64,000 nucleotides of DNA, from assembly GCA_030390025.1 (NCBI GenBank), contig JASTWF010000322.1:186001-250000 (forward strand), read 5' to 3'. The translations under genes and the position numbers were made by a program. The number at the start of each line of letters is the position of its first letter. The stretch's first letter is position 1. The notes beneath the pieces are model-generated. The model saw only the letters and a program-made list of their open reading frames with translations. It was not told where the DNA came from and searched no databases. Positions 8,201-59,492 of the stretch are shown piece by piece. Origin of the DNA: Squalus acanthias (taxonomy: Eukaryota).

Positions 8201-9285
8201 TAGTGTACTAAATTGCAAGAAGTACAAGTAAATCGCTGTTCCACCTGGGGAATAAAGTAATTCTCTGTCGTCTTTCCCAACCCCCACCTCCAATACTTTT
8301 ATACGGACAAAAATCTTCAAGGAAAATGGAATAAAAACACACGTGTGCGATTGTTTTCTTAACGCCCCTACGGTTTCCCTCTCCCGGTGTTGCCCCCAGC
8401 AGTGACCGGGAGATTAATCTTCAATTCTTGGAGACTCCGAGACAGTCCTGGGGCGGTGGCGACCTGCAGCGTAAGTGAAACAGTTTGGGCTGGATTTTGC
8501 CAATGGGGTGCTTTTGGAGGCGGGACTCCCACTTGTCGGGTTTTAGTCCCGCTTCCATCGACTTCTGGCCAACCCACGCTATTTTCCCTTGATTGACCTG
8601 GTGAAGCCCGCCCAGCGGGCTGAGCAGGCCGATTAATGGGAAGCTGGATACAGAGAATGTCAGCGTATGACCATTTCATCTGTCGAAAATTTTTGACAGG
8701 TGAATTGTCATCATTTGACAGCTCTGTGAAGCTGTCAAACACTGACATTCTCTGTAGTTTGATGAGTTCTTGAATTCAAGACCTCATCAAACCTCTTTCT
8801 TCAGCAGAAATTAGATGGTTGCTGCATTGGAGAATGCAACGACCATCTGTCATCTCTACCGCGGAGATGCGAGACTCTCCGCATCCCCAACGATTGAAGT
8901 CTGCAGGAAGAAACAAAGGTTAATACACTTTTTCTAACACTTTGCACTTACCTCAGACACTCACCTCTCCACACTTGCACCCATCACTCACCTCCACAGC
9001 GCACTTTTGCACCCCTCCGACCCCCGCAGACCCAGTACTCGCCTCGCTGACCCTGGCGGGTTTCGGAGCCTTCAGGCTGTAATCCCCTTCCCGCCTCCAA
9101 GGAGACGGGACCCGGTGCGGGTCGACTACCCGCCTCCTGGCAAGATGGCACGGAGGCGGCACGGAGGCGGGATGGGCACCTGCCCCCAGATTCTGCCATT
9201 TTCCCGGCAGTCCCGCCTCCATACCCGCCTCCCCAGGGCTGTCGAGATCGCGCCCAACCTCTCTCTCAGGAATGTCCTGTTATCT

Positions 9286-9665
9286 GAGAAGTCGCACAAC
9301 ACCAGGTTATAGTCCAACCGCTTTATTTGAAATCACAAGTTTTCGGAGCGCTGCTCCTTCGTCAGGTGAAGTGAAGAGATGCATATAGGCACAGCATATA
9401 TAGTCAGAGAACACTGCCAGGTGACTACAGTTAATCTTTCTAACTGAGGTGTGATAAAGGGCAGTTAGAAAGATTAACTGTAGTCATCTGGCTGTGTTCT
9501 CTGACTATATATGCTGTGACTATATGCATCTCTTCACTTCACCTGACGAAGGAGCAGTGCTCCGAAAGCTTGTAATTTCAAATAAAGCGGTTGGACTATA
9601 ACCTGGTGTTGTGCGACTTCTCACATTTGTCCACCCCCAGTCCAACACCGGCATCTCCGCATCAC
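9286..9665. mobile_element. Penelope family B pseudo-LTR inverted pair
   Basis: 9286-9445 is the reverse complement of about 9460-9622; each arm carries a mutated hammerhead motif. Confidence 0.82.
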
Positions 9666-9934
9666 GGCTGTTATCTGAGCACCAGTTCACTTCTGGCTTT
9701 GCATTGGTGCTTGCAAATCTACTGCTGAAGCGGTTTCCAATCGGACCGGGTCTTTGGGTATCTGAGCAACCACCGCCCCTGACCACCGCCCGACTCTGGG
9801 TGTTATCATAATCCTCAAACAACAACACCTTGCATCGATACAGCGCCTCTAACGTAGTCAAACGGCCCAAGGCGCTGTCGCAGGAGCGATTACCAAACAC
9901 AATTTGACGACCGAGCCACATCAGGAGATATTGG

Positions 9935-18985: not shown

Positions 18986-19706
18986 TGATGTGGAGACGCC
19001 GGTGTTGGACTGGGGTGGACAAATGTGAGAAGTCGCACAACACCAGGTTATAGTCCAACAGCTTTATTTGAAATCACAAGCTTTCGGAGCGCTGCTCCTT
19101 CATCAGGTGAAGTGAAGAGATGCATATAGGCACAGCATATATAGTCAGAGAACACTGCCAGGTGACTACAGTTAATCTTTCTAACTGCCCTTTATCACAC
19201 CTCGGCAGAGAGATAATCACGGCAATCGAAGGTGTGGATGGTGTCCAAACAGGTCAGTCAGGAAAACATGACATCAAAGACAATGAGGTGGGGTCACGAG
19301 GGGTCAATGTGGCAGATGCCGGGGTCTGGATGGAAAACAAAAAACTTTTTTTGCTGGAAATCACAGCAGGTCCGGCCGTATCTGTGTAGAGAGAACAAGC
19401 CAACGACGACTCGAGTCTGGATGACTCTACGTCAGGTGGGGTTACATGTAGCGTGACATGAACCCAAGATCCTGGTTGAGGCCGTCCTCATGGGTGCAGA
19501 ACTTGGCTATCAGTTTCTGCTCGACGATTTTGCGTTGTCGTGTGTCTCAAAGGCCGCCTTGGAGAACGCTTACCCGAAGATCAGAGGCTGAATGTCCTTG
19601 ACTACTGAAGTGTTCCCCGACTGGGAGGGAACACTCCTGCCTGGCGATTGTTGCGCGGTGTCCGTTCATACGTTGTCGCAGTGTTTGCATGGTCTCGCCG
19701 ATGTAC
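18986..19706 (-). mobile_element. Penelope family B 3' fragment (GIY-YIG end plus pLTR)
   Basis: Reverse strand encodes YIGETMQTLRQRMNGHR...EQKLIAKF, followed by the hammerhead-bearing repeat. Confidence 0.85.
19074..19110 (-). ncRNA. Minimal hammerhead ribozyme motif, family B (intact)
   Basis: ucac CUGAUGA a ggag-cagcg-cucc GAAA gcUU guga; palindromic AAGCUU. Confidence 0.82.
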
Positions 19707-22354: not shown

Positions 22355-25300
22355 ATGATGGAGGGTGTGGGAGGTCTATCTCAGGCTGTGATGGAGGGTG
22401 TGGGAGGTCTATCTCAGGCTGTGATGGAGGGTGCGGGAGGTCTATCTCAGGCTCTCAGGCTGTGATGGAGGGTGTGGGAGGTCTATCTCAGGCTGTGATG
22501 GAGGGTGTGGGAGGTCTATCTCAGGCTGTGATGGAGGGTGTGGGAGGTCTATCTCAGGCTGTGATGGAGGGTGTGGGAGGTCTATCTCAGGCTGTGATGG
22601 AGGGTGTGGGAGGTCTATCTCAGGCTGTGATGGAGGGTGTGGGAGGTCTATCTCAGGCTGTGATGGAGGGTGTGGGAGGTCTATCTCAAGCTGTGATGGA
22701 GGGTGTGGGAGGACTATCTCAGGCTCTCAGGCTGTGATGGAGGGTGTGGGAGGTCTATCTCAGGCTCTCAGACTGTGATGGAGGGTGTGGGAGGTCTATC
22801 TCAGGCTGTGATGGAGGGTGTGGGAGGTCTATCTCAGGCTGTGATGGAGGGTGTGGGAGGTCTATCTCAGGCTGTGATGGAAGGTGTGGGAGGTCTATCT
22901 CAGGCTGTGATGGAGGGTGTGGGAGGTCTATCTCAGGCTGTGATGGAGGGTGTGGGAGGTCTATCTCAGGCTGTGATGGAAGGTGTGGGAGGTCTATCTC
23001 ATGCTGTGATGGAGGGTGTGGGAGGTCTATCTCAGGCTGTGATGGAGGGTGTGGGAGGTCTATCTCAGGCTGTGATGGAGGGTGTGGGAGGTCTATCACA
23101 GGCTGTGATGGAGGGTGTGAGAGGTCTATCTCAGGCTGTGATGGAGGGAGTGGGAGGTCTATCTCGGGCTCTCAGGCTGTGATGGAGGGTGTGGGAGGTC
23201 TACCTCAGGCTGTGATGGAGGGTGTGGGAGGTCTATCTCAGGCTGTGATGGAGGGTGTGGGAGGTCTATCTCAGGCTGTGATGGAGGGCGTGGGAGGTCT
23301 ATCTCAGGCTGTGATGGAGGGTGTGGGAGGTCTATCTCGGGCTCTCAGGCTGTGATGGAGGGTGTGGGTGGTCTATCTCAGTCTGTGATGGAGGGTGTGG
23401 GAGGTCTATCTCAGGCTGTGATGGAGGGTGTGGGAGGTCTATCTCAGGCTGTGATGGAGGGTGTGGGAGGTCTATCTCAGGCTGTGATGGAGGGTGTGGG
23501 AGGTCTATCTCAGGCTGTGATGGAGGGTGTGGGTGGTCTATCTCAGGCTGTGATGGAGGGTGTGGGAGGTCTATCTCGGGCTCTCAGGCTGTGATGGAGG
23601 GGGTGGGAGGTCTATCTCAGGCTGTGATGGAGGGTGTGGGAGGTCTATCTCAGGCTGTGATGGAGGGTGTGGGAGGTCTATCTCAGGCTGTGATGGAGGG
23701 CGTGGGAGGTCTATCTCAGGCTCTCAGGCTGTGATGGAGGGTGTGGGAGGTCTATCTCGGGCTCTCAGGCTGTGATGGAGGGTGTGGGTGGTCTATCTCA
23801 GGCTGTGATGGAGGGTGCGGGAGGTCTATCTCAGGCTCTCAGGCTGTGATGGAGGGTGTGGGAGGTCTATCTCAGGCTGTGATGGAGGGTGTGGGAGGTC
23901 TATCTCAGGCTGTGATGGAGGGTGTGGGAGGTCTATCTCAGGCTGTGATGGAGGGTGCGGGAGGTCTATCTCAGGCTCTCAGGCTGTGATGGAGGGTGTG
24001 GGAGGTCTATCTCAGGCTGTGATGGAGGGTGTGGGAGGTCTATCTCAGGCTGTGATGGAGGGTGTGGGAGGTCTATCTCAGGCTGTGATGGAGGGTGTGG
24101 GAGGTCTATCTCAGGCTGTGATGGAGGGTGTGGGAGGTCTATCTCAGGCTGTGATGGAGGGTGTGGGAGGTCTATCTCAGGCTGTGATGGAGGGTGTGGG
24201 AGGTCTATCTCAAGCTGTGATGGAGGGTGTGGGAGGACTATCTCAGGCTCTCAGGCTGTGATGGAGGGTGTGGGAGGTCTATCTCAGGCTCTCAGACTGT
24301 GATGGAGGGTGTGGGAGGTCTATCTCAGGCTGTGATGGAGGGTGTGGGAGGTCTATCTCAGGCTGTGATGGAGGGTGTGGGAGGTCTATCTCAGGCTGTG
24401 ATGGAAGGTGTGGGAGGTCTATCTCAGGCTGTGATGGAGGGTGTGGGAGGTCTATCTCAGGCTGTGATGGAGGGTGTGGGAGGTCTATCTCAGGCTGTGA
24501 TGGAAGGTGTGGGAGGTCTATCTCATGCTGTGATGGAGGGTGTGGGAGGTCTATCTCAGGCTGTGATGGAGGGTGTGGGAGGTCTATCTCAGGCTGTGAT
24601 GGAGGGTGTGGGAGGTCTATCACAGGCTGTGATGGAGGGTGTGAGAGGTCTATCTCAGGCTGTGATGGAGGGAGTGGGAGGTCTATCTCGGGCTCTCAGG
24701 CTGTGATGGAGGGTGTGGGAGGTCTACCTCAGGCTGTGATGGAGGGTGTGGGAGGTCTATCTCAGGCTGTGATGGAGGGTGTGGGAGGTCTATCTCAGGC
24801 TGTGATGGAGGGCGTGGGAGGTCTATCTCAGGCTGTGATGGAGGGTGTGGGAGGTCTATCTCGGGCTCTCAGGCTGTGATGGAGGGTGTGGGTGGTCTAT
24901 CTCAGTCTGTGATGGAGGGTGTGGGAGGTCTATCTCAGGCTGTGATGGAGGGTGTGGGAGGTCTATCTCAGGCTGTGATGGAGGGTGTGGGAGGTCTATC
25001 TCAGGCTGTGATGGAGGGTGTGGGAGGTCTATCTCAGGCTGTGATGGAGGGTGTGGGTGGTCTATCTCAGGCTGTGATGGAGGGTGTGGGAGGTCTATCT
25101 CGGGCTCTCAGGCTGTGATGGAGGGGGTGGGAGGTCTATCTCAGGCTGTGATGGAGGGTGTGGGAGGTCTATCTCAGGCTGTGATGGAGGGTGTGGGAGG
25201 TCTATCTCAGGCTGTGATGGAGGGCGTGGGAGGTCTATCTCAGGCTCTCAGGCTGTGATGGAGGGTGTGGGAGGTCTATCTCGGGCTCTCAGGCTGTGAT

Positions 25301-28300
25301 GGAGGGTGTGGGTGGTCTATCTCAGGCTGTGATGGAGGGTGCGGGAGGTCTATCTCAGGCTGTGATGGAGGGTGTGGGAGGTCTATCTCAGGCTCTCAGG
25401 CTGTGATGGAGGGTGTGGGAGGTCTATCTCAGGCTCTCAGGCTGTGATGGAGGGTGTGGGAGGTCTATCTCAGGCTGTGATGGAGGGTGTGGGAGGTCTA
25501 TCTCGGGCTCTCAGGCTGTGATGGAGGGCGTGGGAGGTTTATCTCAGGCTGTGATGGAGGGAGTGGGAGGTCTATCTCAGGCTGTGATGGAGGGCGTGGG
25601 AGGTCTATCTCAGGCTCTCAGGCTGTGATGGAGGGTGTGGGAGGTCTATCTCGGGCTCTCAGGCTGTGATGGAGGGTGTGGGAGGTCTATCTCAGGCTGT
25701 GATGGAGGGTGCGGGAGGTCTATCTCAGGCTCTCAGGCTGTGATGGAGGGTGTGGGAGGTCTATCTCAGGCTGTGATGGAGGGTGTGGGAGGTCTATCTC
25801 AGGCTCTCAGGCTGTGATGGAGGGTGTGGGAGGTCTATCTCGGGCTCTCAGGCTGTGATGGAGGGTGTGGGAGGTCTATCTCAGGCTGTGATGGAGGGTG
25901 TGGGAGGTCTATCTCAGGCTGTGATGGAGGGTGCGGGAGGTCTATCTCAGGCTCTCAGGCTGTGATGGAGGGTGTGGGAGGTCTATCTCAGGCTGTGATG
26001 GAGGGTGCAGGAGTTCTATCTCAGTCTCTCAGGCTGTGATGGAGGGTGTGGGAGGTCTATCTCAGGCTGTGATGGAGGGTGTGGGAGGTCTATCTCAGGC
26101 TCTCAGGCTGTGATGGAGGGTGTGGGAGGTCTATCTCAGGCTCTCAGGCTGTGATGGAGGGTGTGGGAGGTCTATCTCAGGCTGTGATGGAGGGTGCGGG
26201 AGGTCTATCTCAGGCTGTGATGGAGGGTGTGGGAGGTCTACCTCAGGCTGTGATGGAGGGTGTCGGAGGTCTATCTCAGGCTGTGATGGAGGGTGTGGGA
26301 GGTCTATCTCAGGCTGTGATGGAGGGTGTGGGAGGTCTATCTCAGGCTGTGATGGAGGGTGTGGGAGGTCTATCTCAGGCTGTGACGGAGGGTGTGGGAG
26401 GTCTATCTCAGGCTGTGACGGAGGGTGTGGGATGTCTATCTCAGGCTGTGACGGAGGGTGTGGGAGGTCTATCTCAGGCTGTGATGGAGGGTGTGGGAGG
26501 TCTATCTCAGGCTGTGATGGAGGGTGTGGGAGGTCTATCTCAGGCTCTCAGACTGTGATGGAGGGTGTGGGAGGTCTATCTCAGGCTGTGATGGAGGGTG
26601 TGGGAGGTCTATCTCAGGCTCTCAGGCTGTGACGGAGGGTGTGGGAGGTCTATCTCAGGCTGTGATGGAGGGTTTGGGAGGTCTATCTCAGGCTGTGATG
26701 GAGGGTGTGGGAGGTCTATCTCAGGCAATCAGGCTGTGATGGAGGGTGTGGGAGGTCTATCTCAGGCTGTGATGGAGGGTGTGGGAGGTCTATCTCAGGC
26801 TCTCAGGCTGTGATGGAGGGTGTGGGAGGTCTATCTCAGGCTGTGATGGAGGGTGTGGGAGGTCTATCTCAGGCTCTCAGGCTGTGATGGAGGGTGTGGG
26901 AGGTCTATCTCAGGCTCTCAGGCTGTGATGGAGGGTGTGGGAGGTCTATCTCAGGCTGTGATGGAGGGTGTGGGAGGTCTATCTCAGGCTCTCGGGCTGT
27001 GATGGAGGGTGTGGGAGGTCTATCTCAGGCTGTGATGGAGGGTGTGGGAGGTCTATCTCAGGCTCTCAGGCTGTGATGGAGGGTGTGGGAGGTCTATCTC
27101 AGGCTGTGATGGAGGGTGTGGGAGGTCTATCTCAGGCTGTGATGGAGGGAGTGGGAGGTCTATCTCGGGCTCTCAGGCTGTGATGGAGGGTGTGGGAGGT
27201 CTACCTCAGGCTGTGATGGAGGGTGTGGGAGGTCTATCTCAGGCTGTGATGGAGGGTGTGGGAGGTCTATCTCAGGCTGTGATGGAGGGCGTGGGAGGTC
27301 TATCTCAGGCTGTGATGGAGGGTGTGGGAGGTCTATCTCGGGCTCTCAGGCTGTGATGGAGGGTGTGGGTGGTCTATCTCAGTCTGTGATGGAGGGTGTG
27401 GGAGGTCTATCTCAGGCTGTGATGGAGGGTGTGGGAGGTCTATCTCAGGCTGTGATGGAGGGTGTGGGAGGTCTATCTCAGGCTGTGATGGAGGGTGTGG
27501 GAGGTCTATCTCAGGCTGTGATGGAGGGTGTGGGTGGTCTATCTCAGGCTGTGATGGAGGGTGTGGGAGGTCTATCTCGGGCTCTCAGGCTGTGATGGAG
27601 GGGGTGGGAGGTCTATCTCAGGCTGTGATGGAGGGTGTGGGAGGTCTATCTCAGGCTGTGATGGAGGGTGTGGGAGGTCTATCTCAGGCTGTGATGGAGG
27701 GCGTGGGAGGTCTATCTCAGGCTCTCAGGCTGTGATGGAGGGTGTGGGAGGTCTATCTCGGGCTCTCAGGCTGTGATGGAGGGTGTGGGTGGTCTATCTC
27801 AGGCTGTGATGGAGGGTGCGGGAGGTCTATCTCAGGCTCTCAGGCTGTGATGGAGGGTGTGGGAGGTCTATCTCAGGCTGTGATGGAGGGTGTGGGAGGT
27901 CTATCTCAGGCTGTGATGGAGGGTGTGGGAGGTCTATCTCAGGCTGTGATGGAGGGTGCGGGAGGTCTATCTCAGGCTCTCAGGCTGTGATGGAGGGTGT
28001 GGGAGGTCTATCTCAGGCTGTGATGGAGGGTGTGGGAGGTCTATCTCAGGCTGTGATGGAGGGTGTGGGAGGTCTATCTCAGGCTGTGATGGAGGGTGTG
28101 GGAGGTCTATCTCAGGCTGTGATGGAGGGTGTGGGAGGTCTATCTCAGGCTGTGATGGAGGGTGTGGGAGGTCTATCTCAGGCTGTGATGGAGGGTGTGG
28201 GAGGTCTATCTCAAGCTGTGATGGAGGGTGTGGGAGGACTATCTCAGGCTCTCAGGCTGTGATGGAGGGTGTGGGAGGTCTATCTCAGGCTCTCAGACTG

Positions 28301-31300
28301 TGATGGAGGGTGTGGGAGGTCTATCTCAGGCTGTGATGGAGGGTGTGGGAGGTCTATCTCAGGCTGTGATGGAGGGTGTGGGAGGTCTATCTCAGGCTGT
28401 GATGGAAGGTGTGGGAGGTCTATCTCAGGCTGTGATGGAGGGTGTGGGAGGTCTATCTCAGGCTGTGATGGAGGGTGTGGGAGGTCTATCTCAGGCTGTG
28501 ATGGAAGGTGTGGGAGGTCTATCTCATGCTGTGATGGAGGGTGTGGGAGGTCTATCTCAGGCTGTGATGGAGGGTGTGGGAGGTCTATCTCAGGCTGTGA
28601 TGGAGGGTGTGGGAGGTCTATCACAGGCTGTGATGGAGGGTGTGAGAGGTCTATCTCAGGCTGTGATGGAGGGAGTGGGAGGTCTATCTCGGGCTCTCAG
28701 GCTGTGATGGAGGGTGTGGGAGGTCTACCTCAGGCTGTGATGGAGGGTGTGGGAGGTCTATCTCAGGCTGTGATGGAGGGTGTGGGAGGTCTATCTCAGG
28801 CTGTGATGGAGGGCGTGGGAGGTCTATCTCAGGCTGTGATGGAGGGTGTGGGAGGTCTATCTCGGGCTCTCAGGCTGTGATGGAGGGTGTGGGTGGTCTA
28901 TCTCAGTCTGTGATGGAGGGTGTGGGAGGTCTATCTCAGGCTGTGATGGAGGGTGTGGGAGGTCTATCTCAGGCTGTGATGGAGGGTGTGGGAGGTCTAT
29001 CTCAGGCTGTGATGGAGGGTGTGGGAGGTCTATCTCAGGCTGTGATGGAGGGTGTGGGTGGTCTATCTCAGGCTGTGATGGAGGGTGTGGGAGGTCTATC
29101 TCGGGCTCTCAGGCTGTGATGGAGGGGGTGGGAGGTCTATCTCAGGCTGTGATGGAGGGTGTGGGAGGTCTATCTCAGGCTGTGATGGAGGGTGTGGGAG
29201 GTCTATCTCAGGCTGTGATGGAGGGCGTGGGAGGTCTATCTCAGGCTCTCAGGCTGTGATGGAGGGTGTGGGAGGTCTATCTCGGGCTCTCAGGCTGTGA
29301 TGGAGGGTGTGGGTGGTCTATCTCAGGCTGTGATGGAGGGTGCGGGAGGTCTATCTCAGGCTGTGATGGAGGGTGTGGGAGGTCTATCTCAGGCTGTGAT
29401 GGAGGGTGTGGGAGGTCTATCTCAGGCTCTCAGGCTGTGATGGAGGGTGTGGGAGGTCTATCTCAGGCTGTGATGGAGGGTGTGGGAGGTCTATCTCGGG
29501 CTCTCAGGCTGTGATGGAGGGTGTGGGAGGTTTATCTCAGGCTGTGATGGAGGGAGTGGGAGGTCTATCTCAGGCTGTGATGGAGGGCGTGGGAGGTCTA
29601 TCTCAGGCTCTCAGGCTGTGATGGAGGGTGTGGGAGGTCTATCTCGGGCTCTCAGGCTGTGATGGAGGGTGTGGGAGGTCTATCTCAGGCTGTGATGGAG
29701 GGTGCGGGAGGTCTATCTCAGGCTCTCAGGCTGTGATGGAGGGTGTGGGAGGTCTATCTCAGGCTGTGATGGAGGGTGTGGGAGGTCTATCTCAGGCTCT
29801 CAGGCTGTGATGGAGGGTGTGGGAGGTCTATCTCGGGCTCTCAGGCTGTGATGGAGGGTGTGGGAGGTCTATCTCAGGCTGTGATGGAGGGTGTGGGAGG
29901 TCTATCTCAGGCTGTGATGGAGGGTGCGGGAGGTCTATCTCAGGCTCTCAGGCTGTGATGGAGGGTGTGGGAGGTCTATCTCAGGCTGTGATGGAGGGTG
30001 CAGGAGTTCTATCTCAGTCTCTCAGGCTGTGATGGAGGGTGTGGGAGGTCTATCTCAGGCTGTGATGGAGGGTGTGGGAGGTCTATCTCAGGCTCTCAGG
30101 CTGTGATGGAGGGTGTGGGAGGTCTATCTCAGGCTCTCAGGCTGTGATGGAGGGTGTGGGAGGTCTATATCAGGCTGTGATGGAGGGTGCGGGAGGTCTA
30201 TCTCAGGCTGTGATGGAGGGTGTGGGAGGTCTACCTCAGGCTGTGATGGAGGGTGTCGGAGGTCTATCTCAGGCTGTGATGGAGGGTGTGGGAGGTCTAT
30301 CTCAGGCTGTGATGGAGGGTGTGGGAGGTCTATCTCAGGCTGTGATGGAGGGTGTGGGAGGTCTATCTCAGGCTGTGACGGAGGGTGTGGGAGGTCTATC
30401 TCAGGCTGTGACGGAGGGTGTGGGATGTCTATCTCAGGCTGTGACGGAGGGTGTGGGAGGTCTATCTCAGGCTGTGATGGAGGGTGTGGGAGGTCTATCT
30501 CAGGCTGTGATGGAGGGTGTGGGAGGTCTATCTCAGGCTCTCAGACTGTGATGGAGGGTGTGGGAGGTCTATCTCAGGCTGTGATGGAGGGTGTGGGAGG
30601 TCTATCTCAGGCTCTCAGGCTGTGACGGAGGGTGTGGGAGGTCTATCTCAGGCTGTGATGGAGGGTTTGGGAGGTCTATCTCAGGCTGTGATGGAGGGTG
30701 TGGGAGGTCTATCTCAGGCAATCAGGCTGTGATGGAGGGTGTGGGAGGTCTATCTCAGGCTGTGATGGAGGGTGTGGGAGGTCTATCTCAGGCTCTCAGG
30801 CTGTGATGGAGGGTGTGGGAGGTCTATCTCAGGCTGTGATGGAGGGTGTGGGAGGTCTATCTCAGGCTCTCAGGCTGTGATGGAGGGTGTGGGAGGTCTA
30901 TCTCAGGCTCTCAGGCTGTGATGGAGGGTGTGGGAGGTCTATCTCAGGCTGTGATGGAGGGTGTGGGAGGTCTATCTCAGGCTCTCGGGCTGTGATGGAG
31001 GGTGTGGGAGGTCTATCTCAGGCTGTGATGGAGGGTGTGGGAGGTCTATCTCAGGCTCTCAGGCTGTGATGGAGGGTGTGGGAGGTCTATCTCAGGCTGT
31101 GATGGAGGGTGTGGGAGGTCTATCTCAGGCTCTCAGGCTGTGATGGAGGGTGTGGGAGGTCTATCTCAGGCTGTGATGGAGGGTGTGGGAGGTCTATCTC
31201 AGGCTCTCAGGCTGTGATGGAGGGTGTGGGAGGTCTATCTCAGGCTGTGATGGAGGGTGTGGGAGGTCTATCTCAGGCTCTCAGGCTGTGATGGAGGGTG

Positions 31301-31810
31301 TGGGAGGTCTATCTCAGGCTGTGATGGAGGGTGTGGGAGGTCTATCTCAGGCTCTCAGGCTGTGATGGAGGGTGTGGGAGGTCTATCTCAGGCTCTCAGG
31401 CTGTGATGGAGGGTGTGGGAGGTCTATCTCAGGCTGTGATGGAGGGTGTGGGAGGTCTATCTCAGGCTCTCAGGCTGTGATGGAGGGTGTGGGAGGTCTA
31501 TCTCAGGCTGTGATGGAGGGTGTGGGAGGTCTATCTCAGGCTCTCAGGCTGTGATGGAGGGTGTGGGAGGTCTATCTCAGGCTGTGATGGAGGGTGTGGG
31601 AGGTCTATCTCAGGCTCTCAGGCTGTGATGGAGGGTGTGGGAGGTCTATCTCAGGCTGTGATGGAGGGTGTGGGAGGTCTATCTCAGGCTCTCAGGCTGT
31701 GATGGAGGGTGTGGGAGGTCTATCTCAGGCTGTGATGGAGGGTGTGGGAGGTCTATCTCAGGCTCTCAGGCTGTGATGGAGGGTGTGGGAGGTCTATCTC
31801 AGGCTCTCAG
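22355..31810. repeat. About 9.5-kb satellite of 33-bp units with 41-bp variants
   Basis: Unit GTGATGGAGGGTGTGGGAGGTCTATCTCAGGCT; the variant adds CTCAGGCT. Confidence 0.98.
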
Positions 31811-32360
31811 TCGGTTATGAAGGGTGCGGCAGCTGCACCTTCGGCCCCCCGCCTGTGGGGGGCAGCAATGGTGGCTCTGCGCTCCCGGCAGCCTCCGCGC
31901 GCGGGAAAGCGCCCTATGCCGGCGGCGGGCGGCGGCGCTGCGCAGGCGCGGGGCGGGGCGCGGTGCCTGCCGGACAGGCGGCGGACTCAGCCAGCGGCGC
32001 CAGCCCCGTCGGTCGCTCAGTCGGGCGGGCGGGAGGCGCTCGGAGGGACGGACTGCGCCGCCGCCGCCGCGGGAGAGAGAGCGAGAGGCCGCAGGTCAGT
32101 GAGAGAGCGGGCGTGGGGAGAACCGATCGAAAGGGCGCATTTATTCTCTTTAATCACCTTAAGCACCGACGGAAGGGGGCGGCCGGGGTTCGGTTTTATT
32201 AATTTTTTTTTTAAAACAAACAGCCGCCCCGGAATCTGGATGGGGAAAGGAAGAGAGAGAAAAAAAATGTATTTTTTTTCAAATCCGCACCGGCCGCGGC
32301 GACGTCACCAAGCTCCACCTTCTTCCCCCCATGCGCGCTCGCCAGGCCCCGCCCCCCCGC
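31811..32360 (+). promoter_or_regulatory. CpG-island promoter and non-coding exon 1 of the zinc-finger gene
   Basis: Very CpG-rich; GC boxes (ggggcgggg near 31950, ccccgcccc near 32347); donor CAG|GTCAGT at 32094/32095. Confidence 0.7.
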
Positions 32361-34595
32361 TGTGACATCTTCAAGCTCCTCCCTCCTGTTCCTGATCCAC
32401 ATACTGGCCATTGTGACATCATCGAGCTCCTCCCCCCTGTTCCTGATCCTCATACTGACCATTGTGACATCATCGAGCTCCTCCCTCCTGTCCCTGATCC
32501 ACATACTGACCATTGTGACATCATCGAGCTCCTCCCTCCTGTCCCTGATCCACATACTGACCATTGTGACATCATCGAGCTCCTCCCTCCTGTCCCTGAT
32601 CCACATACTGACCATTGTGACATCTTCAAGCTCCTCCCTCCTGTTCCTGATCCACATACTGGCCATTGTGACATCATCGAGCTCCTCCCTCCTGTTCCTG
32701 ATCCTCATACTGACCATTGTGACATCATCGAGCTCCTCCCTCCTGTCCCTGATCCACATACTGGCCATTGTGACATCATCGAGCTCCTCCCCCCTGTTCC
32801 TGATCCACATACTGCCCGTTGTGACATCTTCAAGCAACTCCCTCCTGTTCGTGATCCTCATACTGACCATTGTGACATCATCGAGCTCCTCCCTCCTGTC
32901 CCTGATCCTCATACTGCCCGTTGTGACATCTTCAAGCTCCTCCCTCCTGTTCGTGATCCTCATACTGGCCATTGGGACATCATCGAGCTCCTCCCCCCTG
33001 TTCCTGATCCTCATACTGACCATTGTGACATCATCAAGCTCCTCCCCCCTGTTCCTGATCCTCATACTGACCATTGTGACATCTACGAGCTCCTCCCTCC
33101 TGTTCCTGATCCTCATACTGCCCGTTGTGACATCATCAAGCTCCTCCCCCCTGTTCCTGATCCACATACTGACCATTGTGACATCATCGAGCTCCTCCCC
33201 CCATGTTCCTGATCCACATACTGGCCATTGTGACATCATCGAGCTCCTCCCCCCTGTTCCTGATCCACATACTGACCATTGTGACATCATCAAGCTCCTC
33301 CCCCCTGTTCCTGATCCACATACTGGCCATTGTGACATCATCAAGCTCCTCCCCTGTTCATCAAGCTCCTCCCCAATTCATCAAGCTCCTCCACTGTTCC
33401 TGATCCACATACTCTTGTGACATCATCAAGCTCCTCCCCAATTCATCAAGCTCCTCCCCTGTTCCTGATCCACTTACAGCCCATTGTGACATCATCAAGC
33501 TCCTCCCCCTGTTCCTGATCCAAATACTGATTATTGTGACATCATCAAGCTCCTCCTCCTGTTCATCAAGTTCCTCTCCTGTTCCAGATCCACATACTGC
33601 CCGTTGTGACATCATCAAGCTCCTCCTCCTGTTCATCAAGTTCCTCCCCCTGTTCCTGATCCACTTACAGCCCATTGTGACATCATCAAGCTCCTCCCTA
33701 TTCAAGCTCCTCCCCCTGTTCCTGATCCAAATACTGATTATTGTGACATCATCAAGCTCCTCCTCCTGTTCATCAAGCTCCTCCTCCTGTTCATCAAGCT
33801 CCTCCTCCTGTTCATCAAGCTCCTCCTCCTGTTCATCAAGTTCCTCTCCTGTTCCAGATCCACATACTGCCCGTTGTGACATCATCAAGCTCCTCCTCTG
33901 TTCATCAAGCTCCTCCCCCTGTTCCTGATCCACATACTCTTGTGACATCATCAAGCTCCTCCCCAATTCATCAAGCTCCTCCCCTGTTCCTGATCCACTT
34001 ACAGCCCATTGTGACATCATCAAGCTCCTCCCTATTCAAGCTCCTCCCCCTGTTCCTGATCCAAATACTGATTATTGTGATATCATCAAGCTCCTCCTCC
34101 TGTTTATCAAGCTCCTCCTCCTGTTCATCAAGTTCCTCTCCTGTTCCAGATCCACATACTGCCCGTTGTGACATCATCAAGCTCCTCCTCCTGTTCATTA
34201 AGCTCCTCCCCCCTGTTCCTGATCCACATGCTGCCCATTGTGACATCAAGCTCCTCCCCTATTCAAGCTCCTCTACCCTGTTCCTGATCCAAATACTGAT
34301 TATTGTGACATCAAGCTTCTCCTCCCCCTTCCTGATCTGCATACTGCCCATTGTGACATCATCAAGCTCCTCCCCCCTGTTCCTGATCCACATGCTGCCC
34401 ATTGTGACATCATCAAGCTCCTCCCCTATTCAAGCACCTCTACCCTGTTCCTGATCCAAATACTGATTATTGTGACATCATCAAGCTCCTCCCCCTGTTC
34501 CTGATCCACATGCTGCCTATTGTGACATCAGCAAGCTCCTCCCCCTATTCAAGCTCCTCCCCCCTGTTCCTGATCTGCATACTGCCCATTGTGAC
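32361..34595. repeat. 51-bp minisatellite degenerating into mixed shorter sub-units
   Basis: Unit tgtgacatcatcgagctcctccctcctgttcctgatccacatactgaccat (17-codon period); irregular after about 33350. Confidence 0.95.
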
Positions 34596-36962: not shown

Positions 36963-37819
36963 TTCTTCTTCTTCTTCTTCTTAGGCAGTCCCTCGGAACC
37001 GAGGATGACTTGCTTCCACATTAAAAATGAAAGTGAGAAGTCGCACAACACCAGGTTATAGTCCAACAGTTTTATTTGAAATCACAAGCTTTCGGAGCGG
37101 CTGCTCCTTCGTCAGGTGAAGTGATTTCAAATCAAGTGAAGTCAGATTTCAAATAAAACTGTTGGACTATAACCTGGTGTTGCGCGACTTCTCACTTTTG
37201 TCCACCCCAGTCCAACACCGGCATCTCCGCATCATGGAGATTAAAAATGAGTTCTCAGGTGACTGATGAGTCCAATGCGGGACCGACAGTCTCTGTCACA
37301 GGTGGGGTAGACGGTGGTTGAAGGGGGCGGGTGGGTGGGGTGCTTGGGTTGACGTGCGCTCCTTGCGCTGCCTGCGCTTGGCTTCCGCTTGCTTCCAGCG
37401 AAGAGACTCGAGGTGTTCGGCGCCTTCCCGGATGCTTCTCCTCCACTTTGTGCTCTGGTCTTGGGCCAGGGATTCCCAGGTGTCGGTGGGGATGTTACAC
37501 TTTTTCAAGGAGGCTTTGAGGGTGACCTCGAAGCGTTTCCTCTGCCCACCTGGGGCTCTCTTGCCGTGTCGGAGCTCCGAGTAGAGCGCTTGTTCTGGGA
37601 GTATCGTATCGGGCATGCGGACGATGTGGCCCGTCCATCGGAGCTGATCGAGCGTGGTCAAAGCTTCGATGCTGGGGATGTTGGCCTGAGCGAGAACACT
37701 GACGTTGGTGCGCCTATCCTGCCAATGGATGTGCAGGATCTTGCGGAGGCAGCGTTGGTGGTACCTCTCCAGTGCTTTGAGGTGCCTGCTGTACATGGTC
37801 CATGTCTCTGAGGCATCCA
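36963..37819 (-). mobile_element. 5'-truncated RTE LINE with (GAA)n tail
   Basis: YSRHLKALERYHQRCLRKIL...QLRWTGHIVRMPD...GGQRKRF. Confidence 0.88.
37031..37239. mobile_element. Short inverted Penelope family B pLTR insertion inside the RTE
   Basis: 11-bp TSD attaaaaatga at 37020-37030 and 37240-37250; hammerhead motif at about 37082-37119 (-). Confidence 0.8.
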
Positions 37820-39039
37820 GGTCTAACCAGGGCTTTGTACAGCTGCAGCATAACTTCTACCCCCTTGTACCCTAGTCCTCTAGATATAAAGGCCAGCATT
37901 CTATTAGCCTTTTTGATTATTTTCTGTACCTGTCCATGACATTTTAATGATCTATGTATCTGGACTCCCGAAGTATCTTTGGACATGTGCACAGTTTGGG
38001 TCTCCTTATCTGAGGAAGGATAGACTTGCCTTGGAGGCGGTGCAACGAAGGTTCACTCGATTGATCCCTGGGATGTGAGGGTTGTCCTATGAGGAGAGAT
38101 TGAGTAGATTGGGCTGATACTCTCTGGAGTTTAGAAGAATGAGAGGTGATCTCATTGAAACATACAAGATTCTGAGGGGGATTGACAGGGTAGATGCTGA
38201 GAGGCTGTTTCCCCCTGGCTGGAGAGTCTAGAACCAGGGGACACAGTCTCAGGATAAGGGGTCGGCCATTTACATAGAAACATAGAAACTCCTGAAAGGT
38301 CTGTCTCTAATTTTTAGACTATGCCCCTAGTCCTAGAATCCCCAACCAGCAGAAATAGTTTCTCTCTCTCTCTCTACCCTGTCGGTTCCCTTTAATATCT
38401 TGAAAACTTCGATCAGATCAACCCTTAACCTTCGAAACTCCAGGGAACACGACCCTAGTTTGTGTAATCTCTCCTCATAACAATCCTTGGAGCCCGGGTA
38501 TCATTCTGGTAAACCTAGGCTGCACTCCCTCCAAGGCCAATATATCTTTCTTAAACTGTGGGGTCCAGAACTGCTCCCAGTGCTCCAGGTGTGGTCTAAC
38601 CAGGGCTTTGTACAGCTGCAGCAGAACTTCTACCCCCTTGTATTCTAGTCCTCTAGATATAAAGGCCAGCATTCCATTAGCCTTTTTGATTATTTTCTGT
38701 ACCTGTTGATGACATTTTAATGATCGATGTACCTGGACCCCCCAAGTCTCTTTGGACCTCCACTGTTTTTAGCTTTTCACCATTTAGAAAGTACCCTGTT
38801 CTGTCCTGCTTAGGTCCAAAGTGGATGACCTCACAATGGACTACATTGGAATCCATTTGCCACAGTTTTGCCCATTCACTTAATCTGCCGATATCCCTTT
38901 GTCAATTTATGCCTCCATCTGCACTGAAGCCTACAATGCCCCCTATCTTTGTGATGCGGAGATGCCGGTGTTGGACTGGGGTGGACAAAAGTGAGAAGTC
39001 GCACAACACCAGGTTATAGTCCAACAGCTTTATTTGAAA

Positions 39040-39076
39040 TCACAAGCTTTCGGAGCGCTGCTCCTTCGTCAGGTGA
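39040..39076 (-). ncRNA. Minimal hammerhead ribozyme motif, family B (intact)
   Basis: ucac CUGACGA a ggag-cagcg-cucc GAAA gcUU guga. Confidence 0.82.
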
Positions 39077-39261
39077 AGTGAAGAGATGCATATAGGCACA
39101 GCAAATATAGTCAGAGAACACTGCCAGATGACTACAGTTGATCTTTCTAACTGCCCTTTATCACACCTCGGCAGAGAGATAATCACGGCAGAAAGATTAA
39201 CTGTAATCATCTGGCTGTGTTCTCTGACTATATATGCTGTGCCTATATGCATCTCTTCACT

Positions 39262-39298
39262 TCACCTGACGAAGGAGCAGCGCTCCGAAAGCTTGTGA
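39262..39298 (+). ncRNA. Minimal hammerhead ribozyme motif, family B (intact)
   Basis: tcacctgacgaaggagcagcgctccgaaagcttgtga read directly on the + strand. Confidence 0.82.
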
Positions 39299-39877
39299 TT
39301 TCAGATAAAGCTGTTGGACTATAACCTGGTGTTGTGCGACTTCTCACATTTGCCTAACTTTGTGTTATCGGCAAATTTGCATATAAGACTTTCTATGCCA
39401 TCATCCAAGTCGTTAATAAATACTGAGAATAGTTGAGGCCCCCCACACAGATTCCTGCGGGACGCCACTAGTCACATCCTGCCAATTAGAGAGTACCGAC
39501 CCATTATCCTTACTGTCTGTCTCAGCCAGTTTCCTAACCAGGTCAATAATTTGCCCTCAATTCCGTGGGCTTCTACCTTAGTTTAAAAAAAAAAATTTTT
39601 TTTATTCGTTTATGGGATGTGGGCGTCGCTGGGAAGGCCAGCATTTATTGCCCATCCCTAATTGCCCTTGAGAAGGTGGTGGTGAGCCGCCTTCTTGAAC
39701 CGCTGCAGTCCGCGTGGTGATGGTGCTCCCACACAGTGTCTTGCTGGGCCATTTCAGAGGGGCAGTTAAGGGTCGAGCGCAACCGAAAACGCTGGAAAAA
39801 CTCAGCAGGCCAGGCAGCATCCGTGGAGAGAGAAACAGAGTTAACGTTTCATGTCGGTAAAAAGCAGGAAATGAAAT

Positions 39878-40455
39878 AGTACAGGGCCTTGGTGAGACCA
39901 CACCTTGAGTACTGTGTGCAGTTTTGGTCGCCTTATCTGAGGAAGGATGTTCTTGCCATGGAAGGAGTTCAGCGAAGATTCACCAGGCTGATACCTGGGA
40001 TGGCAGGAATGACGTATGAGGAGAAATTGGGTCGATTGGGCTTATACTCGCTGGAGTATAGAAGAATGAGAGGGGCTCTCATCGAAACATATAAAATTCT
40101 GACAGGTCTGGACAAACTAGATGCAGGAAGGATGTTCCCGATGGTCGGAGAGTCCAGAACCAGGGGTCATAATCTAAGGATAAGGGGTAAGCCATTTAGG
40201 ACAGAAATGAGGAAGAATTTCTTCACCCAGAGAGTGGTGAACCTGTGGAATTCTCTACCACAGAAGGTAGTTGAGGCCAAGTCATTAAATATATTCAAGA
40301 ATGAGTTAGATATATTTCTTAAAGCTAAAGGTATCAAGGGATACGGGGAGAAGGCAGGTACAGGGTACTGAGTTTGGATGATCAGCCATGATCTCATCGA
40401 ATGGCGGAGCAGGCTCGAGGGGCCGAATGGCCTACTCCTGCTCCTATCTTCTATG
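39878..40455 (+). mobile_element. 5'-truncated CR1 inserted in a Penelope family A copy
   Basis: ORF 39889-40371; Penelope A sequence at 39785-39877 and 40460-41022. Confidence 0.88.
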
Positions 40456-41029
40456 TAAAGCAAGTATAAAGCTGGGAAAAGGGGGAGGGGATGAAAGAAC
40501 AAAGGGGGAGGTCAGTGATGGGATAGAAAGCAGGAGAGATTAAGAGACATTTGTCCATCGAGTTCAACAATTTCAGATCATAACCCCGGCCCCTATCACA
40601 TATATATATATTTTTATTTTATTTTTTCATCCACCCTTTTGTTGGCCTTTTTTTTCTTCCCTCCCAGAAGCTGGCAGCTGTCCTTCATTCTGCCAGCGCA
40701 ATTCACACTTCATCTAGCCTCAATCTGTCACATTACCACCTCCTCTTGCCTTGAATATCTCTCAATCTCTCTTAATCTCTCCTGCTTTCTATCCTACCAC
40801 TGACCTTCCCTTTTGTTCTTTCATCCCCTCCCCCTTTTCCCAGCCCCTAAAACTTGCTTTAAAATCTGTTCCATTTCCTGCTTTTTTCCAGTTCTGACGA
40901 AAGGTCTTCGACCTGAAGCGTTAACTCTGTTTCTCTCTCTCCACGGATGCTGCCTGGCCTGCTGAGTTTTTCCAGCGTTTTCTGTTGTTATTTCGGATTT
41001 CCAGCATCCGCAGTATTTTGCTATCGTAA

Positions 41030-52247: not shown

Positions 52248-53262
52248 AACAAGCCAACGACGACTCGAGTCTGGCTGACTCTACGTCATGTAGCGTGACA
52301 TGAAACCAAGATCCCGGTTGAGGCCGTCCTCATGGGTGCGGAACTTGGCTATCAGTTTCTGCTCGATGATTTTGCGTTGTCGTGTGTCTCGAAGGCCACC
52401 TTGGAGAACACTAACCCGCAGATCCGAGGCTGAATGCCCTTGACTGCTGAAGTGTTCCCCGACTGGGAGGTAACAATCCTGCCTGGCGATTGTTGTGCGG
52501 TGCCCGTTCATACGTTGTCTCAGTGTCTGCATGGTCTCGCCGATGTACCATGCTCCGGGGCATCCTTTCCTGCAACGTATGAGGTAGACAACGTTGGCCG
52601 AGTCACATGAGTATGTACCATGTACCTGGTGGGTAGTGCCCTCACGTATGATGACGGTATCTGTGTTGATGATCTGGCATGTCTTGCAGAGGTTGCCGTG
52701 GCAGGGTTGTGTGGTGTCGTGGTCGCTGTTCTCCTGACAGCTGGGTAATTTGCTGCGAAAGATGGTACTTTTGAGGTTAGGCGGCTGCTTGATGGCGAGT
52801 AGTGGAGGCGTGGGGATGGCCTTAGCGAGGTGTTCGTCGTCGTCATTATTCTTACAGATGTGAGAAGTCGCACAACACCAGGTTATAGTCCAACAGCTTT
52901 ATTTGAAATCACAAGCTTTCGGAGCGCTGCTCCTTCGTCGGGTGAAGTGAAGAGATGCATATAGGCACAGCATATATAGTCAGAGAACACTGCCAGGTGA
53001 CTACAGTTAATCTTTCTAACTGCCCTTTATCACACCTCGGCAGAGAGATAATCTCGGCAATCAAAGGTGTGGATGGTGTCCAAACCGGTCAGTCAGGAAA
53101 ACATGACATCAAAGACAATGAGGTGGGGTCACGAGGGGTCAAATGTGGTAGATGCTGGGGGTCTGGATGGAAAACAAAAAACTTATTTTGCTGGAAATCA
53201 CAGCAGGTCCGGCCGCATCTGTGTAGAGAGAACAAGCCAACGACGACTCGAGTCTGGATTCT
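52248..53262 (-). mobile_element. Penelope family B: GIY-YIG fragment (52248-52845) and separate pLTR copy (52858-53257)
   Basis: Cys-rich linker then YIGETMQTLRQRMNGHR...DGLNRDLG; pLTR flanked by attcttacag duplication. Confidence 0.85.
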
Positions 53263-54045: not shown

Positions 54046-54282
54046 GTTCCTGTCAAAGATAGTCACCAATAAATCCAGTCGGGAATTCAGGAGAAATTTC
54101 TTCACCCAGAGAGTGGAACTCGCTACCACAGGGAGTGGTTGGCCCTCAGTTTGGAGTATTGTGTTCAATTCTGGGCACCGCACTTTCGGAAGGATGTCAA
54201 GGCCTTAGATTGGGTGCAGAGGAGATTGACCAGAATGGTTCTGCTCTGTGTTCGAGTTCCACCCTCCACTGTCTCTATATTG

Positions 54283-54637
54283 AGTCGTTGTTGGCTTGTT
54301 CTCTACACAAGTTTTTTGTTTTCCATACAGACCCCAGCATCTGCCACATTGACCCCTCGTGACCCCACCTCATTGTCTTTGATGTCATGTTTTCCTGACT
54401 GACCTGTTTGGACACCATCCACACCTTTGATTGCCGAGATTATCTCTCTGCCGAGGTGTGATAAAGGGCAGTTGGAAAGATTAACTGCAGTCATCTGGCA
54501 GTGTTCTCTGACTATATATGCTGTGCCTATATGCATCTCTTCACTTCACCTGACGAAGGAGCAGCGCTCCGAAAGATCGTGATTTCAAATAAAGCTGTTG
54601 GACTATAACCTGGTGTTGTGCGATTTCTCACATTTGT
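54283..54637 (+). mobile_element. Penelope family B pLTR
   Basis: Reverse complement of 19020-19400; hammerhead with altered stem III (gaaagatc). Confidence 0.82.
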
Positions 54638-56720
54638 CTCTATATTGTCAGACTGCTTGTCCGACAGCAGAAATTTCCTCCCAGCTAAATATTGGGGTGA
54701 CCAAAGCCATTGCCATCGGTCCCCGCCACAAACTCCGTTCCCGGCCACTGACTCCATCCCTCTCCCTAACATTGGTCTGAGGCTGAGCCAGAATGTTTGC
54801 AACCTTGGTGTCGTATTTGACCCTGAAATGAGCTTCAGACCACATATCCGCAGCATAACAAAGACCGCCTACTTCCACCTCCGTAACATCGCCCGTCTCC
54901 GCCCTTGTCTCAGCTCATCCGCTGCTGAAACCCTCATCCCTGCCTTTGTCACCTCTAGGCTTGACTATTCCAACGCTCTCCTGGCTGCCCTCCCACATTC
55001 CACCCTACGTAAACTTGAGGTCATCCAAAACTCGGCTGCCCCCGTGTCCTAACTCGCACCGAGTCCCGTTCACCCATCACCCCCTGTGCTCGCTGACCTA
55101 CACTGGCTCCCGGTCCGGCAACACCTCGATTTCAAAATTCTCATCCTCCTATTCAAATCCCTCCATGGCCCCTCGCCCCCTCCCTATCTCTGTAACCTCC
55201 TCCAGCCCTACAATTCTCATCCTCCTGTTCAAATCCCTCCATGGCCCTCGCCCCCTCTCTATCTCTGTAACCTCCTCCAGTCCCTACAATTCTCATCCTC
55301 CTGTTCAAATCCCTCCATGGCCCATGTCCCCTCCCTATCTCTGTAAACTCCTCCAGCCCCTACAATTCTCATCCTCCTGTTCAAATCCCTCCATGGCCCT
55401 CGCCCCCTCCCTATCTCTGTAACCTCCTCCAGCCCCTACAATTCTCATCCTCCTGTTCAATCTCTCCATGGCCCCTCGGCCCCCTCCCTATCTCTGTAAC
55501 CTCCTCCAGCCCCTACAATTCTCATCCTCCTGTTCAAATCCCTCCATGGCCCCTCGCCCCCTCCCTATCTCTGTAACCTACCCCAGCCCTACAATTCTCA
55601 TCCTCCTGTTCAAATCCCTCCATGGTCCTCGCCCCCTCCCTATCTCTGTAACCTCCTCCAGCCCTACAATTCTCATCCTCCTGTTCAAATCCCTCCATGG
55701 TCCTCGCCCCCTCCCTATCTCTGTAACCTCCTCCAGCCCTACAATTCTCATCCTCCTGTTCAATCTCTCCATGGCCCCTCGCCCCCCTCCCTATCTCTGT
55801 AACCTCCTCCAGCCCCTACAATTCTCATCCTCCTGTTCAAATCCCTCCATGGCCCTCGCGCCCTCCCTATCTCTGTAACCTCCTCCAGCCCTACAATTCT
55901 CATCCTCCTGTTCAAATCCCTCCATGGCCCTCGCCCCCTCCCTATCTCTGTAATCTCCTCCAGCCCCTACAATTCTCATCCTCCTGTTCAAATCACTCCA
56001 TGGCCCTCGCCCCCCCTCCCTATCTCTGTAACCTCCTCCAGCCGTACAATTCTCATCCTCCTGTTCAAATCCCTCCACGGCCCTCGCCCTCTCCCTATCT
56101 CTGTAACCTCCTGCAGCCCCTACAATTCTCATCCTCCTGTTCAAATCCCTCCATGGCCCTCGCCCCCTCCCTATCTCTGTAACTTCCTCCAGCCCCTACA
56201 CTTCTCATCCTCCTGTTGAAATCCCTCCATGGCCCTCACCACTCCCTATCTCTGTAACCTCCTCCAGCCCTACAATTCTCATCCTCCTGTTCAAATCCCT
56301 CCATGGTCCTCGCCTCCTCCCTATCTCTGTAAGCTCCTCCAGCCCCTACAATTCTCATCCTCCTGTTCAAATCCCTCTATGACCCTCGCCCCCTCCCTAT
56401 CTCTGTAACCTCCTCCAGCCCTACAATTCTCATCCTCCTGTTCAAATCCCTCTATGACCCTCGCCCCCCTCCCTATCTCTGTAACCTCCTCCAGCCCCTA
56501 CAACCCTCCGAGATCTCTGCGCTCCTCCAATTCTGACCTCTTGAGCATCCCCCGATTTCCATCGCTCCACCATTGGCGGCCGTGCCTTCAGCTGCCTGGG
56601 GCCCCGAGCTCTGGAATTCCCTCACTAAACCTCTCCGCCTCTCCCCCCTCCTTTAAGACGCTCCTTAAAACCGACCTCTTTGACCCAGCTTTTGGTCACC
56701 TGTCCCTAACATGTCCTTAT
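54638..56720 (+). mobile_element. L2 LINE 3' part with about 18 copies of the 75-76-bp unit
   Basis: NLGVVFDPEMSFRPHI...SRLDYSNALL; array 55136-56510. Confidence 0.9.
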
Positions 56721-56769
56721 GTGAGAAGTCGCAGAACACCAGGTTATAGTCCACCAGATTTATTTACAA

Positions 56770-56807
56770 TTACGAGCTTTCGGAGCTGTTGCCCCTTCCT
56801 CAGGTAA
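56770..56807 (-). ncRNA. Divergent family B-like hammerhead motif
   Basis: uuac CUGAGGA a ggggc-aaca-gcucc GAAA gcUC guaa; stems preserved despite substitutions. Confidence 0.75.
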
Positions 56808-56878
56808 AGGTACAATGAGGGAATCTACAGTATTACACAGCATATAAACACAGAAAGCAATTTGTCTGCAGAGATACA

Positions 56879-58580: not shown

Positions 58581-59492
58581 GAGGACTCCATGGCCGAGGA
58601 GGAGGATCATCAGTCCGACTCCAGCTACGAGCCGACCGAGCTCTTTGAGGAGTGGGCAGAGGCGGGCGAGGGGGCCCCCGAGCAGCCCCCCCACAGGCCC
58701 CGGCCCCCGCCCCGCCAGAAGTGCTTCATCTGCACCGAGTGCGGGCGCAGCTTCAACAAGTACTCCAACTTCAAGCAGCACCAGCGGGTGCACTCGGGGG
58801 AGAAGCCCTTCAAGTGCGAGGACTGCGGCAAGGACTTCAACCTGTTGTCCAACCTGCGGCGCCACGAGAGGACCCACACGGGCGAGAAGCCCTACAAGTG
58901 TCTGACCTGCGGCAAGGAGTTCAGCGAGATGTCCAGCCTGCGGCGCCATGAGCGGACCCACACCGGGGAGAAGCCCTTCAAGTGCCCCTTCTGCGGCAAG
59001 CAGTTCAGCCAGTCCTCCATCCTGGTGATCCACCAGCGGACCCACACCGGCGAGAAGCCCTTCAAGTGCCTGGAGTGCGCCAAGGGCTTCAGCGAGCCCT
59101 CCAGCCTACGCAGCCACTTGCGGACCCACACCGGCGAGAAGCCCTTCAAGTGCCCCGACTGCGCCAAGGAGTTCCGCCACTCCTCCAGCCTGGTCCAGCA
59201 CCAGCGTACCCACACCGGCGAGAAGCCCTTCAAGTGCGCCGATTGCGGCAAGGGCTTCACCAAGTCCTCCACCCTGGCCCAGCACAAGCGCACCCACAGC
59301 CAGGAGCGGCCCTTCAAGTGCCCCGTCTGCGAGCGCGGCTTCTCCCGCCTCTCGGTGCTAGGGCGACACCAGCGGGTCCACACCTGGAAGGGGCCCCGCA
59401 CCTGCGCCGACTGCGGCCAGCAGTTCAAGAGCTCGTCCGGCCTCCATGCCCACCAGTGCGCGCCGGAGGCCAAGAAGCCGGCGGCCAGCTGA
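58581..59492 (+). CDS. C2H2 zinc-finger protein, terminal coding exon (acidic N-terminal segment, 8 canonical fingers plus 1 C2HC finger)
   Basis: Tandem CxxC-x12-HxxxH with TGEKP linkers; very high GC3; acceptor (ct)n-gtag at 58580. Confidence 0.95.
   Translation, partial: EDSMAEEEDHQSDSSYEPTELFEEWAEAGEGAPEQPPHRPRPPPRQKCFICTECGRSFNKYSNFKQHQRVHSGEKPFKCEDCGKDFNLLSNLRRHERTHTGEKPYKCLTCGKEFSEMSSLRRHERTHTGEKPFKCPFCGKQFSQSSILVIHQRTHTGEKPFKCLECAKGFSEPSSLRSHLRTHTGEKPFKCPDCAKEFRHSSSLVQHQRTHTGEKPFKCADCGKGFTKSSTLAQHKRTHSQERPFKCPVCERGFSRLSVLGRHQRVHTWKGPRTCADCGQQFKSSSGLHAHQCAPEAKKPAAS

Follow-up and report, generated by a model that had tools for sequence, protein, structure and literature searches.

Minimal hammerheads in Penelope-like elements

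Penelope-like elements (PLEs) of metazoans carry minimal hammerhead ribozymes of type I, mostly in truncated copies, which are described with a 4-bp stem I, an extra nucleotide that sits between position 9 and position 10.1, a G10.1-C11.1 pair and a palindromic 15.2-16.2 (Cervera and De la Pena 2014, PMC4209133). The hosts named in that account include fishes, coelacanth, Xenopus, turtle and snakes, and for Schistosoma it reports pairs of minimal hammerheads on opposite strands, 100-700 bp apart. In the in vitro assays reported there, single minimal motifs gave no cleavage and dimers gave low cleavage (PMC4209133), and the hammerhead of PAc, a PLE of Anolis, is reported to need protein for cleavage (PMC11167929). 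PLE insertions with an inverted 5′-truncated pseudo-LTR (pLTR) and a one-sided tail of 30-40 bp have also been described (Arkhipova 2013, PMC3846280; Craig 2021, PMC8557442). Non-LTR retrozymes, too, contain type I hammerheads that derive from PLEs and act in dimeric form (PMC7229834; bioRxiv 10.64898/2026.07.22.740005); the retrozymes are head-to-tail tandem repeats, whereas the shark pair studied here is head to head, with its two motifs complementary on one RNA.

The family of hammerheads found in the 64,000-nt stretch of DNA analysed here (the window), termed family B, has the traits of the metazoan class, including the type I order, the 4-bp stem I, the extra nucleotide at 9/10.1, the G10.1-C11.1 pair and the occurrence mostly in truncated copies. 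The core boxes CUGANGA, GAAA and U16.1-H17 are present in both members of the pair at 39040 and 39262, with U as H17 in both. The minimal helix III is palindromic, being AGCU in both copies of the pair and ACGU in a second family. The initial annotation gave this helix as the palindrome AAGCUU; of this, only AGCU is able to pair, the first A and the last U being positions 14 and 17 of the core. Stem II has 5 bp, compared with 7-8 bp in Schistosoma (PMC4209133). The hammerhead is a real motif of a known kind in a known kind of insertion, and as such ordinary. With this locus a shark-type family joins a class of ribozymes known since 2014, in an insertion structure already documented for PLEs; its importance as it stands is small. 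A literature search for Penelope hammerheads in sharks returned none on the subject by title, and a shark motif may be among those in the supplementary figures of PMC4209133.

A scan of both strands of the window found the family core at 9365-, 9543+, 19106-, 20473-, 37115-, 39072-, 39266+ and 54550+, together with a U4>C copy of the core at 52941- and a tenth, diverged copy with an intact hammerhead at 56803-. The four copies previously called intact (C3 at 19106-, 37115-, 39072- and 39266+) all pass a descriptor made of CUGANGA, one extra A, a 5-bp stem II, GAA, AGCU, H17 and a 4-bp stem I, and the palindromic AGCU is found in each. The five copies said to be mutated are likewise present, with AACU at 9365-, a stem I mismatch at 9543+, AGAU at 20473-, U4>C at 52941- and both AGAU and C17 at 54550+. 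The descriptor matches nine times in the window (eight family B, the diverged copy included, and one second family); in 200 dinucleotide shuffles it matched 0.015 times on average and at most once. The copies are repeats, and the matches are therefore not independent. A plain core pattern matches 12 times, against 3.21 in shuffles. A search of Rfam at E<=5 gave no hammerhead match; all that came up was one miRNA family, unrelated and scoring under its own cut-off. Curated Rfam hammerhead models expect a closed helix III, and a match to them was therefore not treated as a requirement for minimal hammerheads. For the hammerhead fold of the plus copy, the cut proposed earlier, after 39294, would be the right one. 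The AATAAA that follows this copy is mutated to GATAAA (39305).

The diverged copy (56719-56809, minus strand) is 86% identical to family B; it has C17, and one pair of its stem I has gone from C-G to U-A. In two separate insertions, at 20473 and 54550, AGAU replaces AGCU and a second allele, at -76, is also common to both; these copies may represent a subfamily, in which the dimer helix would hold tandem G-A pairs. A pattern scan of viral contigs gave 0 loci. The same kind of scan of metagenome contigs gave 3 loci, 2 of them distinct over the motif and one with a GIY-YIG end upstream; both distinct loci have a 5-bp stem I, although stem I was absent from the collection pattern. A marine metagenome contig (L002:338-770) contains a related PLE, in which a GIY-YIG end precedes a hammerhead-bearing pLTR that has the downstream motif as well.

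Fifteen motifs were aligned, 14 of them distinct (nine family B with the diverged copy included, three second family and two metagenome). The structure, drawn from one member, is paired in 89.9% of the alignment cells, compared with 72.0% after shuffling. Covariation is found between families, where both sides have changed at 8 of the 12 pairs of helices I and II (14 distinct rows, few independent events), but not within family B. In the family-B arms, differences from the column majority amount to 8/335 cells in the hammerhead, 15/739 upstream and 11/500 downstream. Hammerhead positions decayed as fast as the flanks after insertion, and no excess conservation of the hammerhead was seen among the window copies; that both cores of the 39040/39262 pair are intact is expected at a divergence of ~2% per copy. 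The compensatory changes between families and the similar rates of difference in hammerhead and flanks indicate that the motif was selected in active lineages, with no sign of selection after insertion.

Judged from their sequence, the motifs are minimal type I hammerheads in the pLTRs of a GIY-YIG PLE that has a Neptune-type linker. The tie to a PLE, as first proposed for these pLTRs, holds because the end of a GIY-YIG ORF in insertion B runs unbroken into the 3′ UTR and the hammerhead at 19106. A piece of the ORF of insertion F (52850-52284) has 35 relatives among 155 candidates, and the best named ones are RT-bearing shark proteins, with up to 90% identity. The linker that precedes its endonuclease is CHGNLCKTC (CX4CxxC). 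The Neptune clade is defined by a C-terminal GIY-YIG preceded by a CX2-5CxxC linker (PMC8557442); the shark-type element resembles this clade in its linker and GIY-YIG domain, the ORF being partial in the window. Pfam gave no match to the GIY-YIG ORF fragment, and the motif was read by pattern and through the RT-bearing relatives. At 52281-53257 a pLTR without tail abuts a 5′-truncated ORF with 28 nt of 3′ UTR, after which comes CR1, a layout that may reflect a partial tandem or a template jump. A second PLE-like family, which has the ACGU-palindrome minimal hammerhead, forms head-to-head pairs at 16293-16973 and 39780-41000; the latter is split by a young CR1, and no TSD was found for either pair.

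Table 1. Positions in the window of the inverted pair, its sister insertions and the predicted gene
Feature	Positions	Strand	Remarks
Left TSD, 12 bp	38942..38953	+	11/12 identical to 39353-39364
Long arm, 5′-truncated pLTR	38954..39190	-	Ends in ~35-nt tail (about 38954-38987); inner ~42 nt = hairpin loop
Short arm, 5′-truncated pLTR without tail	39191..39352	+	Head to head with long arm
Right TSD	39353..39364	+	Identity to left TSD; flank overlap on other CR1 copy
Minimal type I hammerhead motif	39040..39076	-	C3 39072; predicted cut after 39044; AATAAA intact 39034-39029
Minimal type I hammerhead motif	39262..39298	+	Stem I 39262-65/39295-98; core 39266-72; extra A 39273
Plus-strand hammerhead, 3′ part	39274-39294	+	Stem II 39274-86; GAA; AGCU 39290-93; U17 39294
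Predicted pLTR promoter	39229..39263	+	TATATAT (39229) and Inr-like TCACTTC, its A at +30 (39259)
Old LINE fragment, presumably CR1, interrupted by insertion E	38780..39519	-	RT-type ORF relatives in window
Sister inverted insertion A	9277..9679	.	12-bp TSD; both hammerheads mutated; tail on + arm only
Sister insertion B	18986..19706	-	GIY-YIG ORF end 19705-19445 straight into full pLTR, hammerhead 19106, AATAAA, tail
Sister inverted insertion D	37020..37250	.	11-bp TSD; one hammerhead (37115-); tail on + arm only
Sister insertion F	52281..53257	-	pLTR with mutated core (52941), then 5′-truncated ORF: CxxxxCxxC linker and GIY-YIG
Sister single insertion G	54270..54647	+	13-bp TSD; hammerhead with non-palindromic AGAU
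Unique CpG island, GC boxes, strong donor at 32095	31841..32355	+	Predicted first exon of zinc-finger gene
C2H2 zinc-finger coding exon	58581..59492	+	Behind polypyrimidine tract and TAG acceptor

The inverted pair and its sister insertions

We put at about 0.85 the probability that the 39040/39262 pair is a single 399-bp head-to-head PLE insertion (insertion E) with a 12-bp TSD, whose read-through RNA is predicted to zip into a hairpin of ~160 bp that would keep the ribozyme inactive (Table 1). The single insertion, its TSD, the one-sided tail and the tie to a GIY-YIG ORF are seen in the sequence itself, all within this one window. On another copy of the interrupted LINE, which we take to be CR1, the two flanks of the insertion (6495-6665 and 6654-6817) overlap by exactly 12 nt. 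The inverted head-to-head build is found in three of the eight family-B insertions in the window (A, D and E), and A is a second inverted pair carrying both cores (9365-/9543+). Of the six insertions searched (A to E and G), four (A, D, E and G) have a TSD of 11-13 bp, compared with 1 of 400 random position pairs; no TSD was found for B (searched with too short a right end) or C, and word searches of their flanks gave no second copy. The 11 arm ends fall into two classes, 5 with a tail of ~35 nt and 6 without, and each of the three inverted insertions has one of each, an outcome with a chance of ~1 in 8. The combination of an inverted truncated pLTR, a one-sided tail and a TSD, as in EN+ PLEs, is present. 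The pair is a recurrent insertion structure of the element and is not special to the zinc-finger gene.

Three other identities were rejected. Two independent side-by-side insertions are ruled out because one TSD brackets both arms, and a MITE because both arms consist of pLTR sequence, which is tied to an ORF of the RT-EN kind. A non-LTR retrozyme is ruled out as well, since no tandem array holds the hammerhead motif and a head-to-tail tandem was not found.

Analogous to the PLEs described by Arkhipova 2013 (PMC3846280) and Craig 2021 (PMC8557442), the pLTRs lie head to head, the TSD surrounds the whole unit, the tail is at one end only, a palindrome lies at the junction and TATA and TCACT motifs are present in the pLTR. 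Differences from those accounts are that here no ORF lies between the arms, the TSDs are 11-13 bp rather than the 8-10 bp of the rotifer cases, and one junction recurs in two insertions. The same two 3′-end classes defining the tail, and a hammerhead near the pLTR 3′ end, are reported for the PAc Poseidon element of Anolis (Frangieh 2024, PMC11167929). PAc is of a different clade, and both-strand priming and protein-assisted cleavage are carried over from it to the shark element only by analogy.

The joining of two separately primed cDNAs fits these structures best and is their probable origin. The RT-endonuclease of the PLE would have nicked both strands 12 nt apart, cDNA would have started at two sites, the tail end and the tail start, and the two truncated cDNAs would have been joined mid-insert via a few complementary bases at a small pLTR hairpin. 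In vitro, the Anolis PLE protein is reported to nick and extend both strands, with two RT starts bounding the tail (PMC11167929), and nicking and priming of both strands may have occurred here in the same way. In the autonomous element the ribozyme would be of use, two same-sense pLTR copies pairing through AGCU, probably with the help of protein; the hammerheads at 39040/39262 would be decaying passengers with no role for the zinc-finger gene.

The pair could instead stem from fold-back self-priming of one cDNA, or from the copying of a master inverted-repeat sub-element, an origin that would leave the verdict on function the same and that we consider rather unlikely. Insertions A and C have an identical inversion junction (9446 and 20570), although only 4-5 nt of the second arm of C are left before an 88-nt tandem array interrupts it, and this suggests either that junctions favor this spot or that an inverted sub-element has propagated; the junction of E falls on the same small pLTR palindrome, or micro-hairpin. 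Private alleles are common to both arms of A (+47) and to both arms of D (+45), and self-priming at junction palindromes has been proposed for other PLEs (PMC3846280). However, the two arms of A (6/155 nt) and of E (5/155 nt) are no more alike than arms taken from separate insertions (2-9), and some of their differences fall at positions that are variable elsewhere (-56, -50, +83). In D, which joins at stem I complementarity with a 20-nt duplication, the tail is on the shorter arm, and a simple fold-back cannot give this. With regard to the preferred joining of two cDNAs, a literature search for Penelope twin priming and inversion returned only unrelated papers. The two 3′-end classes, the 11-13-bp duplications and the recurrent inversion junction constitute a genomic test of how inverted pLTRs arise.

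Predicted folding of the inverted pair and promoter-like sites

Folding was calculated by an equilibrium nearest-neighbour model, without proteins or kinetics. Insertion E folds into a hairpin of ~160 bp at -316.8 kcal/mol (z -34.9), so that the inverted pair would, as first supposed, form a long hairpin. Owing to the head-to-head geometry, the antisense arm is always made first, on either strand. Transcripts of 11 lengths were folded, and in every one the antisense arm pairs with 93-100% of the sense arm at equilibrium. If stems I and II are imposed, the cost is 57.4 kcal/mol for an RNA that ends just past the motif and 66.9 kcal/mol for the full RNA. In the isolated plus motif these stems form with P ~0.86, and in the read-through RNA with P ~1e-41 or lower. 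A minimal hammerhead needs a second sense copy, and the antisense copy cannot give the second AGCU half. The only other plus-strand family-B core in the predicted intron is that at 54550, which lies at a distance of 15 kb and is no longer palindromic.

Transcripts that start inside the insertion would be a different case. In 7 of the 8 arms that include it, TATATAT is spaced exactly 30 nt from an Inr-like A, the exception being the minus arm of the 39040/39262 pair; this A sits 3 nt ahead of stem I. It is conceivable, though very improbable, that these sites fire outward and start short same-sense RNAs without the antisense arm, whose trans dimers could cleave ~36 nt from the cap. In RNA starting at 39259, stems I and II are predicted at P 0.83-0.85 up to 39310, a TATA and TCACT arrangement is described in rotifer pLTRs (PMC3846280) and promoter activity of a pLTR is reported in Drosophila (PMC2377424). 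Yet the promoter motifs are consensus matches only, the TATA of the minus arm of the 39040/39262 pair is mutated to TATATTT, and the probability of stems I and II drops to 0.001 by 39352. Dimerization, too, is predicted to be unfavorable, since with the bare motif both a dimer with swapped stem II (-30.5) and two monomers (2 x -11.6) are more stable than the active dimer (-20.7), and for the Anolis element no read ends at the cut site are reported (PMC11167929). Taken further, and with the same very small likelihood, head-to-head pLTR pairs might be twin outward promoters giving capped RNAs with a half-ribozyme in the first ~40 nt, so that one locus, lying inside a predicted intron, would give both trans dimer partners and decap its own transcripts. 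If true, this would explain how minimal hammerheads that are dispersed come by a partner for dimerization. A small residual interest lies in the recurrent inversion junction and in the TATA/Inr-like pair just ahead of the ribozyme.

Least probable of all, and barely credible in the light of the modelled folding, is the proposal of the initial annotation that hairpin formation and self-cleavage compete in the zinc-finger pre-mRNA, here extended to a tuning of transcript output: although the plus copy is intact, would be sense to the predicted pre-mRNA and can form its stems in isolation, the antisense arm would precede it, the hammerhead fold would cost 57-67 kcal/mol more than the hairpin, the antisense twin could not act as dimer partner and the predicted intron has no intact same-sense one, single minimal motifs did not cleave and dimers did so weakly in the reported assays (PMC4209133), and the differences counted in hammerhead and flanks give no sign of selection.

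The predicted intron of the zinc-finger gene

A 26-kb first intron holding the pair is likely, as predicted from the CpG island with its donor at 32095 and from the exon at 58581 behind a pyrimidine tract. In the window as a whole, 99.5% of GT sites score below this donor. Further CpG-rich stretches, most of which overlap repeats, are found between the island and the zinc-finger exon. A protein search with the N-terminal 46 codons of the exon gave 0 of 10 candidates, a weak blank. Within the predicted intron (32095-58580), no intact hammerhead is in sense orientation except that which its twin would mask, and the free intact copies (37115 and 56803) are antisense, a pattern seen in very few copies. 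A 9.4-kb tandem array of 33/74-nt units (22356-31805) ends directly at the predicted promoter island, and a 51-nt array (32361-33353) lies on its other side.
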